Part shown: in pieces, positions 124-6,315 of the stretch | Layout of the letters: every line of letters begins with the position of its first letter | Position numbering within the stretch: the first letter of the stretch is position 1 | NCBI GenBank assembly: GCA_963588755.1 | Contig: CAVAIM010000001.1 | Span: 1 to 42,203 of the forward strand | Direction of reading: 5' to 3' | DNA length: 42,203 nucleotides | From: a bacterium | Lineage (GTDB): Bacteria > Bacillota_I > Bacilli_A > Acholeplasmatales > Anaeroplasmataceae | Translations under genes and position numbers: made by a program | Notes under the pieces: generated by a model | The model's database searches: none | Told to the model about the DNA's origin: nothing | The model's input: the letters and a program-made list of their open reading frames with translations, nothing else

Positions 124-603
124 ATGACTCTTGGAGAAAGAATACAAGATTTACGAAAGAAAAAAGGATATAGTCAAGAAAAACTAGCTGATCATTTAAA
201 TATGTCACGACAAGCTGTTGCTAAATGGGAACAAGATGCTTGTGAACCTAATATTGGTTGCTTGATTTCTATGTCTGAATTGTTTGAAGTTGATTTAGAT
301 TATTTAATTGCTGGAAAGATTAAGGAAAAAACTAGTGAAAAAATAATAGTAAAAGAGAAAGAACACTTGTTAGATAAAATTGATATTATTCTTTTATTGG
401 TTCTTATTATTTCAATTATTTTTTTCTTTGGATTATTCATATATGCCGTATTAAATCCGATGTATTACCATCAAGCATATTCTTTTATATGGTGGTATAT
501 TTACTTTTGGGTATCTTCAGGAACTTTATTTCGTTTTATGGTTCTTATTTCAGTTTTTGGTATAGTTTTCTCACTTTATAATTTTTTAAAAAGGAGAAAA
601 TAG
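124..603 (+). CDS. XRE-family helix-turn-helix transcriptional regulator with C-terminal transmembrane region
   Basis: N-terminus LGERIQDLRKKKGYSQEKLADHLNMSRQAVAKWE is a classic Cro/C1-type HTH. The C-terminal ~70 aa are strongly hydrophobic (IILLLVLIISIIFFFGLFIYAVL; FMVLISVFGIVFSLY), consistent with 2-3 TM helices. Confidence 0.85.
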   Translation: MTLGERIQDLRKKKGYSQEKLADHLNMSRQAVAKWEQDACEPNIGCLISMSELFEVDLDYLIAGKIKEKTSEKIIVKEKEHLLDKIDIILLLVLIISIIFFFGLFIYAVLNPMYYHQAYSFIWWYIYFWVSSGTLFRFMVLISVFGIVFSLYNFLKRRK

Positions 604-771: not shown

Positions 772-800
772 TTGAAATAGAGTGTAACACGTGTTACAAT
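772..800 (+). promoter_or_regulatory. sigma-A promoter (TTGAAA-17 nt-TACAAT) with embedded perfect 16-bp palindromic operator
   Basis: -35 TTGAAA at 772-777 and -10 TACAAT at 795-800. The palindrome TGTAACACGTGTTACA at 783-798 spans the spacer and the -10. An extra half-site ATGTTACA at 814-821 overlaps the start codon. Confidence 0.55.
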
Positions 801-820
801 TTGATTAAGGGTGATGTTAC

Positions 821-1678
821 ATGTTTTATGATTTAAATAAAGATATTAGATATACGAAAACTGTGTTAAATATGAATGATACTTCTATTTCAGAATTTTT
901 TGGTGTTTCAAGGATGACTTTGTCAAGATGGCAAAATGGAACGTCTCGCCCAAATATTGATACATTAAATAAAATATATAATACAATTTATAAGTCGGGT
1001 ATTAATTTGAATAGAATTAAAGAAGAAATGCATATGTCTAGTATGAAAGATAATCACGTGTTATTATTTCATGGCGCAAAGACAGAAATCAGTGGAGAAC
1101 CTAGTATAGAATATAGTAACGGAAAGAAAGATTTTGGTAAGGGATTTTATCTTGGCGAATCTTTTAATCAAGCTGCAAGCTTTGTCGTTGGATATGAAAA
1201 TTCTTCAGTATATCTATTTGATTTTGATAAATCTAATGTGAGTATCAAGGAATACAATGTATCAAAAGAATGGATGATATTAATTGCTTATTTCAGAGGT
1301 AAACTTGATAGATATAAGGATTCTAAATATCTTAATGAACTATTAGATACCTTAAAGAATGTTGATGTAGTAATTGCACCTATCGCAGATAATACAATGT
1401 ACACTACATTAGATGATTTTATTGAAGGAAAGATAACTGATTTACAATGTTTGAATGCCCTGTCTGCTAATAGACTTGGAAGACAATATGTATTTTTAAA
1501 TGATTCAATTATTAAAAACAATTTAAAAATGATTGAAAGATGTTTTTATTCTGCTTTAGAGAAAAAAGATTATTTAGAATATAGATATAAAGAAAACGAA
1601 ATTGGTAAGAATAAAGTAATACTTGCATTAAGAGAATATGCAGGTAAAGGAAGTTATATTGAGGAATTGTTAAAATGA
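821..1678 (+). CDS. fusion protein: N-terminal XRE-like HTH plus DUF3990-like domain
   Basis: The HTH-like segment is SISEFFGVSRMTLSRWQNGTSRPN. Downstream landmarks LLFHGA, DFGKGFYLGESFNQA, IAPIADN and RQYVF match my recollection of the DUF3990 family. The gene overlaps the next gene by ATGA. Confidence 0.8.
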   Translation: MFYDLNKDIRYTKTVLNMNDTSISEFFGVSRMTLSRWQNGTSRPNIDTLNKIYNTIYKSGINLNRIKEEMHMSSMKDNHVLLFHGAKTEISGEPSIEYSNGKKDFGKGFYLGESFNQAASFVVGYENSSVYLFDFDKSNVSIKEYNVSKEWMILIAYFRGKLDRYKDSKYLNELLDTLKNVDVVIAPIADNTMYTTLDDFIEGKITDLQCLNALSANRLGRQYVFLNDSIIKNNLKMIERCFYSALEKKDYLEYRYKENEIGKNKVILALREYAGKGSYIEELLK

Positions 1679-2133
1679 AGGATACTGATTTAATTAAGTG
1701 TAGATTTGTATCAAACTTGTTTGAATATGCAAGTAAGGTTAAAGAGGGATCATCTAAGATATTTATTAAAGCTTTTGTTTATTCAGCAATATCAAATCGT
1801 ATATCAAATGACGCATTTTTAATAGATTCATTTGATGTTAGTTATGCATATGAATCTATTAAGAAAGAGAAAGTGTTGAATAAAGGATGTGAAACATATC
1901 CTACATATATAATGTCATGGATTGGATATATTATGGAGTATTTCACACTAAATACAGGTATATCTTTAAAAATATTGTATAAGCATGTAAAACCAGAAGA
2001 ATTATATATGTTATATGAGTCATATCATTCATTAGATAATGATGAAGTTGTGAATAGATTATTAGAGGCTCATAATATAAATAGAAATTTAAATGATGTA
2101 GACTTAATGAAAAAAATATATAAAACTCAATAG
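1675..2133 (+). CDS. DUF3791-like protein (usual partner of DUF3990)
   Basis: There is a 4-nt overlap with the upstream gene. The C-terminal EELYMLYESYHSLDNDEVVNRLLE resembles the DUF3791 signature. The assignment comes from memory of the family and its genomic pairing. Confidence 0.6.
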   Translation: MKDTDLIKCRFVSNLFEYASKVKEGSSKIFIKAFVYSAISNRISNDAFLIDSFDVSYAYESIKKEKVLNKGCETYPTYIMSWIGYIMEYFTLNTGISLKILYKHVKPEELYMLYESYHSLDNDEVVNRLLEAHNINRNLNDVDLMKKIYKTQ

Positions 2134-2213: not shown

Positions 2214-3731
2214 ATGTATAAACTTATAGGAAATGTAATTTCTGAAGGCGTAGCTTATGGTAATATAGTTAAGATTAATAATGATAATTTATTTGTATCT
2301 GAAAGAACTTGTAAAGATATAGCTTATGAAAAGGAAGAAATTAGAAAAGCCTTAAAAATAGTAGTAGCTGATTTAAAAGAATTAAGAGATACTTGTAAAG
2401 ATGATTTTCTAGACGCTCATATAATGATTCTTGAAGATAAGACATTAATTGATGAAATAGATAAAGAAATAGATGAACATAATTATGAAGCTAGTAAGGC
2501 TTGTGATATTGTATTTAATAAATATATTAAACAATTTATGAGCTTTGATAGTACTTATTTAGAGGAACGTAATCTAGATTTTAAGGATTTAAGAAGAAGA
2601 GTATTAAGAACATTAAATAAAGATTATGTTGCATCTCTTGAACATGATAAGGTTATTTTAGTATGTGAAGAATTATATCCTAGTTATCTATCTGATTTTA
2701 GATCTACTGTTGCAGGAGTGATTGCTAAAAAAGGTGGAACTACAAGTCATGGTGCAATCTTGTGTCGCGCAAGAGAAATACCTTTTATTGTAGTTGATGA
2801 TATTAATATAGCTGATAATTCTTTAGTTGTTATAGATACTAGAGAAAAAACTTGTTATATTGATTGCGAAGAGGGATTTATAAATAAGTATATTGATTAT
2901 AAGAAATCTATATCAGCTAGAGTAAGAATTAGAGATTTCTCAGAACAAGGTATAAAGATATTTGGTAATGTATCTGAAAATAAAGATTTATATAAGGTAA
3001 GAAAATATAAGTTACATGGTGTAGGTTTATATAGAACTGAATTTATATTTATGAATAAGTCACGTGCTTTAACACAAGATGAACAATATCAAATATATAA
3101 TGATGCAGTACTAGAGATGAAGCAACGTCCTATTACATTTAGAACTTTTGATATAGGTGATGATAAGCAATTATCTTATTTAAAGGCTGATAAGAAGGGT
3201 ATTAGAAATTATAAGAATTATCCGGATTTGTTTAAGGATCAAGTAGTTGCCTTAATTAAAGCTAATAGATATCAAAATATGCGTATTATGTTTCCGATGA
3301 TTGAATCTCAAGAAGAGTTTAGATATTTAAAAGATTTAGTTGTTAAATATAAAAATGAATTAGGAAATAAATCATATTTAAAAATAGGTATGATGTTAGA
3401 AACTAAGGAAGCATTAAAGAACTTATCTAGTTTTATTGATGTAGATTTTATCTCTTTAGGTACTAATGACCTAACTCATGAACTATATAATATTGATAGA
3501 TCTGAAATGTCTAACTATAAGGTTTATATTGAAGATTTAATTAAAGAACTAGAACGTGTAGTAAATCATTGCAAGACTTATAATATTGATTTATCTATAT
3601 GTGGTGAACTTGCGGGAATACCTGAGGTTACTAATAAATTACTTGAAATTGGTATTAGGAACTTCTCAGTTTCAGCTCCTTTATCTAAGGGTGTAGAAGC
3701 TTCTATTGTTAAATATTATAATTTAAAATAA
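2214..3731 (+). CDS. ptsI: phosphoenolpyruvate-protein phosphotransferase (PTS enzyme I) homologue, compact 505-aa form
   Basis: The phospho-His motif is GGTTSHGAILCRA (His179). EI C-domain motifs are all present: YRTEFIF, FRTFDIGDDK, MFPMI, MMLETKEA, LGTNDLT and ICGELAG. It is about 70 aa shorter than canonical EI, and no ptsH or EII gene lies nearby. Confidence 0.75.
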   Translation: MYKLIGNVISEGVAYGNIVKINNDNLFVSERTCKDIAYEKEEIRKALKIVVADLKELRDTCKDDFLDAHIMILEDKTLIDEIDKEIDEHNYEASKACDIVFNKYIKQFMSFDSTYLEERNLDFKDLRRRVLRTLNKDYVASLEHDKVILVCEELYPSYLSDFRSTVAGVIAKKGGTTSHGAILCRAREIPFIVVDDINIADNSLVVIDTREKTCYIDCEEGFINKYIDYKKSISARVRIRDFSEQGIKIFGNVSENKDLYKVRKYKLHGVGLYRTEFIFMNKSRALTQDEQYQIYNDAVLEMKQRPITFRTFDIGDDKQLSYLKADKKGIRNYKNYPDLFKDQVVALIKANRYQNMRIMFPMIESQEEFRYLKDLVVKYKNELGNKSYLKIGMMLETKEALKNLSSFIDVDFISLGTNDLTHELYNIDRSEMSNYKVYIEDLIKELERVVNHCKTYNIDLSICGELAGIPEVTNKLLEIGIRNFSVSAPLSKGVEASIVKYYNLK

Positions 3732-3738
3732 AATTTGA

Positions 3739-3773
3739 ATCTTAAGAGTTAATTCTCTTAGGATTTTTCTTTT
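3739..3773 (+). terminator. rho-independent terminator
   Basis: ATCTTAAGAG (3739-3748) pairs with CTCTTAGGAT (3755-3764) with one G-U pair and loop TTAATT. TTTTCTTTT follows. Confidence 0.7.
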
Positions 3774-3828
3774 AATATAAGATAAACTTAAGTATAATAT
3801 AGGTAATTTAGAAAAGAAAAGGAATTAC

Positions 3829-6315
3829 ATGAAAATGAAAAGAAAAAGAATAATACTAGGCTGTGTTATATTAGGGCTTGCATCTTTATCAAGCTGTGTA
3901 AGAATTGATAAAGAAGATGACTCGACTAGTAAGACAAGTGAAAACTCTAAACCTAATTCAAGTAGTACGAATAAGGAAAGTTCTACTCTAAGTGGAGAAA
4001 CTAGTAGTACAACTAGTGAGACTACAACAAATAATAGTACTACAACAGAAACTCAAAACACTACTGAGACTACAACTACTCATGAAGAAAAGTATACAGT
4101 TAACTTTATGGTGAATGGAGAGATTAGTGAAGTTGTTGTTAAAAAAGGAAATAAGGTAGTAGCGCCAGCCGCTCCTTCAAAAACAGGCTATACTTTTAAG
4201 GGTTGGTATACAAATACTAGTGGTCTAGGAGAAGCTTATGATTTCAATACTTTAATTGAAAGTGATATTACCTTATTTGCAATCTTTGTTAAAGATGCGA
4301 CTAAGTATACTATAACATTTGATATTGATGGTGAGCTACAAACCCAAACAGTAGTTGAAAATAGTAAGGCAATAGAACCATCCGCTCCTTCAAAGACTGG
4401 TTATACTTTCAAGGGTTGGTATAAGTCAAGTGACGGAAGTGGTGAAGCTTATAATTTCAACAGTTCTGTAACATCAAGTTTTACTTTATATGCAATCTTT
4501 GAAAAAGATCCTGTTAAATATACTGTTACATTTAATGTTGATGGGGTTACATCAAGTAAAACAGTTCTTGAAAATAATAAAGTAGAAAAACCAGCAGACC
4601 CTAGTAAGGATGGCTATACATTTAAGGGTTGGTATGAGAATTTAAGTGATAGTGTTGAATTTGATTTTGATACTGAGATTACATCAAATATTACATTATA
4701 TGCTAAATTCGAAGAAACTTTAAAAGATGTATATTCTTCTTATGAAGAAGGATTATATGTTGAATGGGATGATACTAGTTTGGACAATGTATCAGTTTAC
4801 TATAAGAAGACAAGTGATGATACATATACTAAAGTAGATTCTGAATTAATTAGATTAGATAAGACTACATCAAGAGTTAGAGCTGATATTGTAGGTCTTG
4901 AAAAAGGAGAATATCAAATTAAATATATCAAGTCTGATACTACTTCTTATGTAACAAGTGCCTTAAATGTAAGTAACTATGATAGATCAGGTTATGCACA
5001 TTATAATTATTCATCAGATTCTACAGGTGTAGATGTATCAGAAGGTATTGGTGCATATACAAATAGTGGTGTATTAAAGAGTGATACTACTGTAGTATAT
5101 GTAACTGATGAAACTAAGAATACTGTAACTGCAGATATTGCAGGAAAGTCTTATACGGGTATATCTTCAATACTTCAAGCTCAAAAGAATTCTAAGACTC
5201 CACTTAATATTAGAATCATTGGTTCTATAAATGCAGCTACTTGGAATACGATTGATTATAAAGTTAATGGTGTTACAGCTATTACTCCTGATTTAGTTAT
5301 TGGTGCAAATGGTAAGGCACTAGAGAAAAAGAGTTATGATGAGAGTGAAATTATTGAAGCAGGATATAATACACTTCAAACTAACTATACAAAGTTAAAT
5401 GGATTAACTAATAAGATTAAATATGATTCTAGTAAAAAGGAATTTGATAGTTATTATAATATGCTTGATGTTAAGAACGCTATGAATGTAACTGTTGAAG
5501 GTATAGGAGAAGACGCAACTATATTCCAATGGGGATTCACTTGGAAGAGTTCATCATCAATTGAAGTTAGAAATTTAATATTTGATGACTATACAGAAGA
5601 TGCATGTTCATTTGAGGGTTCTGATGATTCTAAAACTTTAAGTGGATTTAAGAGTGGACATATCTGGATTCATAATAATCAATTTAATGAAGGTATGAAT
5701 TATTGGGATGTATGTAATGAACAAGATAAACATGATGGTGATGGTGCAACTGACTTTAAGAAGAATGCATTTATTACTTTATCATATAATCATTATATTA
5801 AGAACCATAAGACTGGTTTAGTTGGTGGTAGTAACTCACAACATACAGCTTGTATTACATTCCATCATAATTATTATGAAGAATGTCAATCTCGTTTACC
5901 TTTAGCTCGTCAAGCTAATATGCATATGTATAATAACTACTATTATAAATCATCAAGTTATTCAATGAGTATTCGTGCAAATGGTTATGCATTCCTTGAG
6001 AACAATTATTTTGAAGGTGGACAAAATCCATACGAACTACAAACTGATTCATCTAATGGTAATGGATATGTAAAAGCATTAAATAATGTATTTGATAATG
6101 TTAATGTTAATGGTGATACATACTATGCGGTTAATAATGTATCTTCTAGACTAGAAACTGTAACTAATACTAATATATATTCAACTACATTTGATACTGA
6201 TTCTAGTGTTTTCTATTTTGATGATGTAAACAAGGTTAGTAAAGTAGAAGTACTTGATACAGCTGATAAGGCTAAAGAGAATTGTTTAAAGTATGCAGGT
6301 GTGCATAAGAAATAA
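3829..6315 (+). CDS. surface lipoprotein: S/T-rich linker, three Listeria-Bacteroides repeats, C-terminal PL1-family pectate lyase-like domain
   Basis: The signal peptide has lipobox LSSC (Cys23), followed by a Ser/Thr-rich aa 30-85 and three GYTFKGWY repeats. The C-terminal beta-helix motifs are HIWIHNNQF, DGDGATDFKKNAFITLSYNHY..HKTGLVGGS, ITFHHNYY..CQSRLPLARQANMHMYNNYY, typical of pectate lyase family 1. Confidence 0.8.
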   Translation: MKMKRKRIILGCVILGLASLSSCVRIDKEDDSTSKTSENSKPNSSSTNKESSTLSGETSSTTSETTTNNSTTTETQNTTETTTTHEEKYTVNFMVNGEISEVVVKKGNKVVAPAAPSKTGYTFKGWYTNTSGLGEAYDFNTLIESDITLFAIFVKDATKYTITFDIDGELQTQTVVENSKAIEPSAPSKTGYTFKGWYKSSDGSGEAYNFNSSVTSSFTLYAIFEKDPVKYTVTFNVDGVTSSKTVLENNKVEKPADPSKDGYTFKGWYENLSDSVEFDFDTEITSNITLYAKFEETLKDVYSSYEEGLYVEWDDTSLDNVSVYYKKTSDDTYTKVDSELIRLDKTTSRVRADIVGLEKGEYQIKYIKSDTTSYVTSALNVSNYDRSGYAHYNYSSDSTGVDVSEGIGAYTNSGVLKSDTTVVYVTDETKNTVTADIAGKSYTGISSILQAQKNSKTPLNIRIIGSINAATWNTIDYKVNGVTAITPDLVIGANGKALEKKSYDESEIIEAGYNTLQTNYTKLNGLTNKIKYDSSKKEFDSYYNMLDVKNAMNVTVEGIGEDATIFQWGFTWKSSSSIEVRNLIFDDYTEDACSFEGSDDSKTLSGFKSGHIWIHNNQFNEGMNYWDVCNEQDKHDGDGATDFKKNAFITLSYNHYIKNHKTGLVGGSNSQHTACITFHHNYYEECQSRLPLARQANMHMYNNYYYKSSSYSMSIRANGYAFLENNYFEGGQNPYELQTDSSNGNGYVKALNNVFDNVNVNGDTYYAVNNVSSRLETVTNTNIYSTTFDTDSSVFYFDDVNKVSKVEVLDTADKAKENCLKYAGVHKK
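4090..4716 (+). repeat. three tandem ~71-aa coding repeats (Listeria-Bacteroides / Flg_new-type repeat)
   Basis: The units are KYTVNF...GYTFKGWY...LFAIF, then KYTITF...GYTFKGWY...LYAIF, then KYTVTF...GYTFKGWY...LYAKF. They cover aa 88-158, 159-229 and 230-296. Confidence 0.85.

Follow-up and report, generated by a model that had tools for sequence, protein, structure and literature searches.

What is the function of a small operon in which a DNA-binding domain and a putative enzymatic domain share one polypeptide, and a gene for a small helical protein follows in an overlapping frame? The question is raised by a 42,203-nt stretch of DNA (hereafter the window; contig CAVAIM010000001.1, assembly GCA_963588755.1) from a bacterium of the Anaeroplasmataceae, where two open reading frames, ORF1 and ORF2, had been described in a first-pass annotation as a candidate self-regulated toxin-antitoxin (TA) or defence pair. 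The region 772-2133 is best explained as an autonomous two-gene cassette of ~1.4 kb (Table 1). On balance we consider it probable that this is an autoregulated TA or abortive-infection-type cassette with ORF1 as an effector that uses NAD+ (nicotinamide adenine dinucleotide).

Results

Architecture of ORF1

ORF1 carries a DUF3990 domain (PF13151; E 3.8e-28; 98.5 bits against a cut-off of 32.2) that covers positions 2-148 of the 152 in the profile. The landmarks from which the first-pass annotation had recognised this family next to an XRE-like helix-turn-helix (HTH) are located exactly where it had placed them: LLFHGA at residues 81-86, DFGKGFYLGESFNQA at 104-118, IAPIADN at 185-191 and RQYVF at 221-225. 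All the residues characteristic of the family as a whole occur in ORF1 (H-G-[ST], D-F-G-x-G-F-Y, Q-A, [AG]-P-I-A-D-[DN] and Q-Y-x-F). Conservation was scored over 78 homologues, 43 of them HTH-fused and 35 standalone, and in this set H84, G85, [ST]86, D104-F-G-x-G-F-Y110, Q117-A118, D182, [AG]186, A189-D/N190 and Q222-Y-x-F are essentially invariant; P187 is invariant in the HTH-fused forms only.

In the AlphaFold2 (AF2) model of ORF1 (pLDDT 90.9, pTM 0.86) the residues H84, Y110 and Q222 are located on predicted strands 79-86, 109-112 and 221-225, which would correspond to strands 1, 2 and 5 of an ADP-ribosyltransferase (ART) core. The best matches of this model in the PDB by Foldseek are 9r35_A/D (probability 0.99, TM-target 0.51-0.53), chains that represent RES, the toxin of Xre-RES in P. 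putida (PMC12204516), followed by the diphtheria-toxin homologue 7rb4 (0.94) and tankyrase 2 (0.47-0.66). Among the structures in BFVD the model matches ART-PolyVal, PolyVal ART and an iridovirus PARP-like protein, at probabilities of 0.97-1.0. The modelling indicates that the DUF3990 domain adopts the split beta-sheet fold of the ARTs. Sequence searches of the PDB with ORF1, ORF2 and the DUF3990-domain profile gave weak HTH matches only and no ART. The resemblance to ARTs that had been suspected from the order of the motifs is supported by fold and invariant residues, but it is not new, DUF3990 being already listed by Pfam in its ADP-ribosyl (ART) clan (PMC7955679). Since Gln replaces Glu at strand 5, several chemistries are possible for ORF1, including mono-ADP-ribosylation, NAD+ cleavage and a phosphotransferase-like reaction.

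The HTH reaches only a sub-threshold Pfam match (HTH_3, E 8.5e-4, 19.8 bits against a cut-off of 23), and profile searches of NCBIfam and PHROGs returned generic HTH matches only. It is clear in the AF2 model, which has five helices in this region (5-16, 20-27, 31-39, 46-58 and 63-73) that Foldseek matches to P22 C2, DdrO, HigA2, HipB and SinR at probabilities of 0.97-1.0. The covalent fusion of this HTH to the ART-fold domain recurs in more than 100 clusters.

Table 1. Coordinates of the module and of second operator copies in related loci (window positions unless a locus is named; aa, amino acids)
Feature	Position	Strand	Basis or remark
-35-like hexamer TTGAAA	772-777	+	promoter scan, 10/12 match with TG extension
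Perfect 16-bp palindrome, arms TGTAACAC and GTGTTACA, candidate operator	783-798	.	fills the spacer; supplies the extended -10 with its right arm
Third half-site TGTTACA	815-821	+	adjoins the ORF1 ATG; 23 nt away from the palindrome's right arm
ORF1	821-1678	+	285 aa; table-11 ORF listing
HTH DNA-binding domain of ORF1	833-1039 (aa 5-73)	+	sub-threshold HTH_3, AF2 helices, Foldseek
DUF3990 domain of ORF1	1061-1516 (aa 81-232)	+	PF13151
ORF1 layout	aa ~5-73; ~78-241; 245-285		XRE-type HTH; DUF3990 ART-like domain; conserved C-terminal helix and tail
Shine-Dalgarno GAGGA for ORF2	1661-1665	+	inside the last codons of ORF1
ORF2	1675-2133	+	152 aa; all-alpha partner, PADLOC PDC-M42B family
Second operator copies	L005:5318-5355; L006:1379-1417; L013:1825-1842; L029:5320-5337; L040:1906-1921

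Conservation of the gene pair

ORF1 has 1,383 detectable homologues, many of them from Acholeplasmatales or Bacilli gut metagenome-assembled genomes (MAGs), and the best 120 of the homologue clusters are nearly all full-length (284-288 aa, 55-98% identity). A genome scan with ORF1 yielded 80 loci, about 46 of which contain a full-length HTH-DUF3990 gene; in 45 of these an ORF2 homologue lies directly downstream, and the expectation that the two genes would be conserved as neighbours is fully borne out. The 4-nt overlap from which translational coupling had been suggested (ATG of ORF2 at 1675-1677, TGA of ORF1 at 1676-1678) is correctly placed and is exactly ATGA in 32 of 39 pairs, with a GAGGA-type Shine-Dalgarno (SD) sequence in the last ORF1 codons of 38 of the 39. 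Both proteins diverge together (r = 0.95 over 741 comparisons), ORF2 being the more divergent partner in 78% of the comparisons. Gene pair, overlap and operator recur across dozens of loci and are beyond chance.

Comparison of all flanking ORFs against each other revealed no other neighbour common to more than 6 of 47 loci. The module is found in unrelated contexts, such as next to an EAL protein and a transglutaminase, or to BioY and ABC transporters; PtsI and ribosomal proteins flank it here and in the 98%-identical contig CAVIYE010000044.1, and one island holds Fic, a second DUF3990 pair and an nSTAND3 protein. Several MAGs contain multiple divergent copies (L005/L042, L009/L013 and L023/L024). 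Because of these unrelated contexts and the several divergent copies per MAG, the pair behaves as a selfish or defence cassette, and its two small, co-directional, coupled genes move as a unit in the way expected of a type II TA system.

Loci 64-70% identical to the AT-rich module of the window come from bins that bear the labels Gemmiger formicilis, Prevotellaceae, Azospirillum sp. CAG:239, Alistipes onderdonkii and Slackia (L001, L003, L004, L007 and L018). These labels probably reflect mis-binned Acholeplasmatales-like or Bacilli contigs and not wide horizontal transfer, and statements on taxa need caution.

Promoter and candidate operator

A sigma-70-like promoter is predicted in front of ORF1, consisting of TTGAAA, a 17-nt spacer and an extended -10 TGtTACAAT (-10 at 795-800). 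The first-pass annotation had pointed to a palindromic operator in the promoter and to the unusual position of the DNA-binding domain on the putative enzymatic partner, and both features are there: the candidate operator, the palindrome at 783-798, is perfect, overlies the -10 and is unique in the window even when 3 mismatches are allowed. The same arms, position and spacing are found in at least 8 related loci, with variable bases at the centre, and TTGAAATAG is kept at the -35 position in L001, L003, L005, L006, L007 and L018. The distance to the third half-site is likewise retained, being 23 nt in L001, L003, L005, L006 and L007 and 22-23 nt in L018 and L026. Distant homologues in Lachnospiraceae, Erysipelotrichaceae and Treponemataceae bins have a different palindrome, AACTTGTTTGTTCAA..TTGAACAAACAAGTT, in the equivalent place. 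Altogether 19 of 45 loci contain a palindrome with arms of at least 8 nt within 80 nt upstream, against 1.6 expected (maximum 5) from Markov-resampled controls and 0/45 in coding controls.

Because the arms are conserved, the centres variable and the sequences specific to each subfamily, the palindrome has the appearance that an operator read by the fused HTH would have, with operators changing along with the HTH subfamily; the third half-site may be bound by the same domain. An interpretation of the palindrome as a terminator was ruled out, as it has no loop, no T-run and no match in the terminator scan.

A second operator copy is located at the stop codon of ORF2, or no more than a few bases from it, in five related loci from different subfamilies with different operator sequences (Table 1); in L005 and L006 it comprises the whole unit of palindrome, 22 nt and half-site. 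The cassette in those five loci is consequently bracketed by direct operator repeats. In L006, where the next gene is convergent, the second copy does not serve as a downstream promoter. Such copies could represent a cassette boundary or recombination site, the remnant of a tandem module, or a site for DNA looping. The module described here has no second operator copy anywhere in the 42-kb window.

The small partner ORF2

The AF2 model of ORF2 (pLDDT 88) is all-alpha, with ten helices. Conserved residues are W82-x-G84-Y85 and Y114-x3-H118-x2-D121, and also R128. It had been claimed that ORF2 belongs to DUF3791 and ends with YESYHSLDNDEVVNRLLE; the segment is indeed present, but at residues 114-131, in the C-terminal third and not at the very end. 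The family assignment stands in part. ORF2 gave no match to Pfam DUF3791 (PF12668; gathering threshold 25 bits) at E <= 1, and the matches in the wider ORF2 family (3 of 33 members) are all sub-threshold, the best at E 6.6e-4. Alignment by hhalign of a diverse ORF2-family alignment with genuine DUF3791 neighbours reached a probability of 74.8% (E 2.6e-5, 55 columns, aa 77-131), below the usual level of proof, and a shallow alignment gave a probability of 27%. The Y-x3-H-x2-D motif is in register in this alignment, and reciprocal hidden Markov model (HMM) matches fall in the same register. These comparisons are suggestive of a C-terminal half (aa ~77-131) remotely related to DUF3791, below the level of a Pfam member.

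A match was also obtained with the PDC-M42B model of PADLOC, to ORF2 itself (E 5.8e-6) and to 31 of 33 diverse members across the family. A word-indexed search recovered 37 clusters of the ORF2 family, none with a Pfam domain, and a full profile search recovered 480 representatives at E <= 1e-3. Some members are 250-380 aa long and have C-terminal extensions (e.g. L015:4813-5583, L019:4849-5664 and L037:4849-5652). A GNAT acetyltransferase domain is present in 3 of the 33 sampled proteins (P0210 and two others), and most of the extensions have no match in Pfam.

The N-terminal half of ORF2 aligns with the second small ORF of the three-gene sets described below in a consistent register, at non-significant scores (E 0.02-0.06); the same non-significant alignment pairs FIKAFxxS of ORF2 with AIKAFISS of Moraxella. 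ORF2 may on this hypothesis be a fusion of two small DUF3990 partners. The possibility that ORF2 is HEPN-like, raised by a sub-threshold match to the Adenyl_transf C-terminal region (E 0.0034), was dropped, as R-x4-H is not conserved and H133 is usually Lys. In Butyrivibrio hungatei NK4A153 there is an orphan ORF2-like gene (L043:8228-8589; HMM E 6.4e-8) on the downstream side of the main module, at a distance of 3.4 kb, preceded by the short palindrome AACATATATGTT that is also found in the main-module promoter there.

Standalone relatives and known systems

Standalone DUF3990 genes of Bacteroidales (L049-L080) have no HTH and form overlapping three-gene sets with two flanking ~75-aa genes, one a genuine DUF3791 member and the other from a second helical family with no Pfam assignment. 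The description of DUF3791 as the habitual neighbour of DUF3990 fits these sets, in which 22 of 22 such genes are Pfam matches. On the Moraxella osloensis plasmid pNP7-2 (NZ_CP024445.1; L086:4454-11482) such a set is embedded in a type I restriction-modification (R-M) operon with the order hsdM, DUF3990, an 83-aa hypothetical gene, DUF3791, hsdS, hsdR, and four further plasmids of M. osloensis show this arrangement as well. In the phage and plasmid collections ORF1 matched only standalone DUF3990 genes, on 4 unannotated phage contigs and 10 plasmids. The three-gene modules share with the present pair the invariant DUF3990 residues, the tight overlaps and, as far as the remote alignment goes, the DUF3791 Y-x3-H motif in the partner; they differ in that ORF1 has gained an N-terminal HTH and a C-terminal helix, and in that a single 152-aa ORF2 takes the place of two ~75-aa partners.

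At the sequence level the pair corresponds to PDC-M42 of PADLOC-DB, a phage-defence candidate catalogued on computational grounds only, with relatives PDC-M13 and PDC-M10. Like PDC-M42 it has two genes, ORF1 matching PDC-M42A (E 3.7e-7; matched by 8/8 ORF1 homologues) as ORF2 matches PDC-M42B, and one PDC-M42A model of 280 aa has its DUF3990 part at 69-234, which is the N-extended architecture of ORF1. The proteins of the window are nevertheless divergent, and ORF1, which also matches the PDC-M10A model, scores higher on the PDC-M13A/B models. All these matches were judged by E-value and not by PADLOC's own score cut-offs.

Among solved structures, the best match of ORF1 is RES, from Xre-RES of P. 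putida (6GW6, 9R35), and both systems are two-gene operons with an ART-superfamily fold. Repression of the Xre-RES operon is exerted by an Xre-type HTH at a palindrome in the promoter (PMC12204516). That HTH is on the antitoxin, however, whereas here it is fused to the ART-like protein; the active-site pattern there is R-E-S as opposed to H-Y-Q, ORF1 has no RES match in Pfam, and ORF2 has an unrelated all-alpha fold. For these reasons the module is not a member of the Xre-RES family and the likeness is at the level of the fold only. By analogy, the module would work most like ART-fold TA systems such as Xre-RES.

In DarTG, ParST and MbcTA the effector has an ART fold and uses NAD+, the co-encoded partner that neutralises it is a macrodomain or an Xre-COG5642 protein, and an HTH, if present, is on the antitoxin. 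The module differs from them in the type of partner and in the HTH on the ART-like protein, and no relationship at the sequence level to these three systems was detected in searches that were not aimed at them.

DUF3990 is also the C-terminal toxin domain of Rhs proteins of type VI secretion systems (T6SS; PMC4524185; PMC10763514). In Serratia Rhs5 and Enterobacter bugandensis RhsA this Pfam domain serves as a deliverable toxin module, with a small gene for cognate immunity after it; the present cassette is different in being intracellular and self-regulated, and a Rhs core, a PAAR domain and a secretion context are all absent from it.

Flanking genes

The gene at 124-603 encodes an XRE HTH (HTH_3, E 4.3e-11) with a hydrophobic, probably membrane-spanning C-terminal half, and is also present in the 98%-identical contig CAVIYE010000044.1. 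It was ruled out as part of the module, having no conserved adjacency to the pair in other loci. Between this gene and the module promoter lies an AT-rich inverted repeat at 684-746, with 20-nt arms of 85% complementarity around a 23-nt loop and with a T-run at its end. This repeat may act as terminator for 124-603; it was not called by the G+C-based terminator scan. Downstream of the module, at 2214-6315, there are a short (505-aa) PTS enzyme I / PEP-utilising protein (PTS, phosphotransferase system; PEP, phosphoenolpyruvate) and an 828-aa surface protein with repeats, whose orthologue in the near-identical contig has a pectate-lyase domain; the S10 ribosomal-protein operon extends from 7645 onward. 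The cassette is consequently inserted among core genes. The genetic code at the locus is the standard one: code 4, in which TGA is read as Trp, was ruled out because TGG encodes the conserved Trp residues and table 11 leaves the long ORFs intact.

Discussion

We propose a mechanism in which ORF1 is the effector. Its DUF3990 domain, with an ART-superfamily fold and an H-Y-Q pattern, would most likely use NAD+, either for ADP-ribosyl transfer or by breaking it down. A dimer of ORF1 would bind through the XRE HTH to the palindrome over the -10, and possibly to the nearby half-site, and thereby shut off its own promoter. ORF2, which would be made stoichiometrically by translational coupling through the SD inside ORF1 and the ATGA overlap, most likely binds ORF1 and keeps the enzymatic domain inactive, so that loss or sequestration of ORF2, for example upon phage infection or loss of the cassette, would set the effector free. 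We infer the toxicity of the DUF3990 protein mainly because this domain is a variable C-terminal toxin domain of Rhs proteins; the neutralisation by ORF2, the NAD+ chemistry and the trigger are parts of the same proposal.

Several observations weigh against this mechanism. The Foldseek matches to solved ART structures have modest E-values (3.7e-3 to 0.3), Gln in place of Glu at beta-5 argues against classical poly- or mono-ART catalysis, and in 2 of 32 close homologues Tyr replaces H84. These two proteins (P0031 and P0094, LFYGAK) may be inactivated or altered-activity variants. The model of ORF2 has no PDB match better than E 1.2 by Foldseek, ORF2 homologues are absent from the phage and plasmid collections searched by tblastn, and the predicted leader between -10 and ATG is very short (~14 nt). 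The literature search found no experiment on any DUF3990 or DUF3791 protein, and no reported function for these families or for the PDC candidates, in agreement with what had been stated from the outset for the two families.

A role in defence is not supported by the context of the HTH-fused subfamily. The enrichment in defence islands that had been put forward as a check is not evident, the neighbours being mostly housekeeping genes. PADLOC matches (E <= 1e-10) amount to ~10% of 145 flanking proteins in 46 loci, a raw share with no background control; they are mainly PDC-S01 (AAA_14/DUF4143), itself an untested candidate, with single instances of dGTPase, DRT, REase, AbiLi and AriA. The only pointers to defence are the standalone relative embedded in an R-M operon and the candidate status in PADLOC.

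The gene order raises a more specific difficulty. An HTH protein encoded first and a small protein second is the canonical antitoxin-then-toxin order of type II operons, so that polarity could be reversed; an HTH on the presumed toxin means that either the architecture is atypical or the roles are exchanged. ORF1 would then be a DNA-binding antitoxin and ORF2 a toxin that is neutralised enzymatically in a type VII-like manner, for example by ADP-ribosylation, or whose effect is reversed. Such an arrangement would also account for the strongly conserved polar and aromatic residues of ORF2 (W82, G84, Y85, Y114, H118, D121 and R128) and for the C-terminal GNAT domains, a known toxin type, on some of its relatives. 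We regard it as unlikely, if quite conceivable: DUF3990 serves as the toxin module of Rhs effectors, it exists standalone with no HTH, its partners there being helical and 70-80 aa long, as immunity proteins or antitoxins typically are, and of the two proteins ORF2 is the faster-evolving one, which is the usual situation for immunity proteins and antitoxins.

Returning to ORF1 as the toxic partner, a bolder version, to which we give a decidedly low probability, would make HTH-DUF3990 a new mechanistic class. The protein would be toxin and its own repressor at once, sitting on the operator while bound to ORF2 and being freed upon loss of ORF2 to modify its target, possibly DNA reached through the HTH; ORF2 would represent a previously unseen fused form of both small partners, with a fold absent from the PDB.

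The functional-looking HTH with its conserved operator, the largely housekeeping neighbourhood and the Gln in place of the catalytic Glu could instead be explained by a non-toxic regulatory pair, in which ORF1 is a transcription factor sensing NAD+, ADP-ribose or a related ligand and ORF2 a co-regulator, with no addiction or defence. We find this rather improbable, as the sole operator copy in the window is at the module's own promoter, and control of nothing but itself is a hallmark of selfish or defence elements; moreover, the pair moves between unrelated contexts with several divergent copies per genome, and the extensive invariant catalytic-type residues are common to the HTH-less and R-M-embedded forms. 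A DNA-directed modifier, in which the HTH would target the ART-like domain so that ORF1 ADP-ribosylates operator-like sites or invading DNA in the manner of DarT or pierisin, with ORF2 as inhibitor, would suit the fusion of a sequence-specific DNA-binding domain to an ART-fold domain in more than 100 clusters and the operator units at both module ends in five loci, but is highly improbable, since it has no direct evidence, a DNA-binding domain is absent from most DUF3990 proteins and autoregulation fully explains the HTH.

Public databases already contain the family assignment, the link to the ART clan and the status as a defence candidate; set against systems characterised by experiment, the module would count as a new variant. 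DUF3990 modules abound in bacteria of the gut and the rumen, one rumen survey having made 3,324 calls of PDC-M13 alone (PMC13356809), and the domain occurs at the tips of Rhs toxins as well. The HTH-fused form is tractable, with 1.4 kb of DNA, a defined candidate operator, a single partner and clear residue targets in H84, Y110 and Q222, and the module offers a clean, testable representative of an abundant uncharacterised family. If the toxicity of ORF1, its neutralisation by ORF2 and the NAD+ chemistry prove true, this would give a function to two DUF families and define an ART-fold TA or defence type whose enzyme carries the repressor domain.

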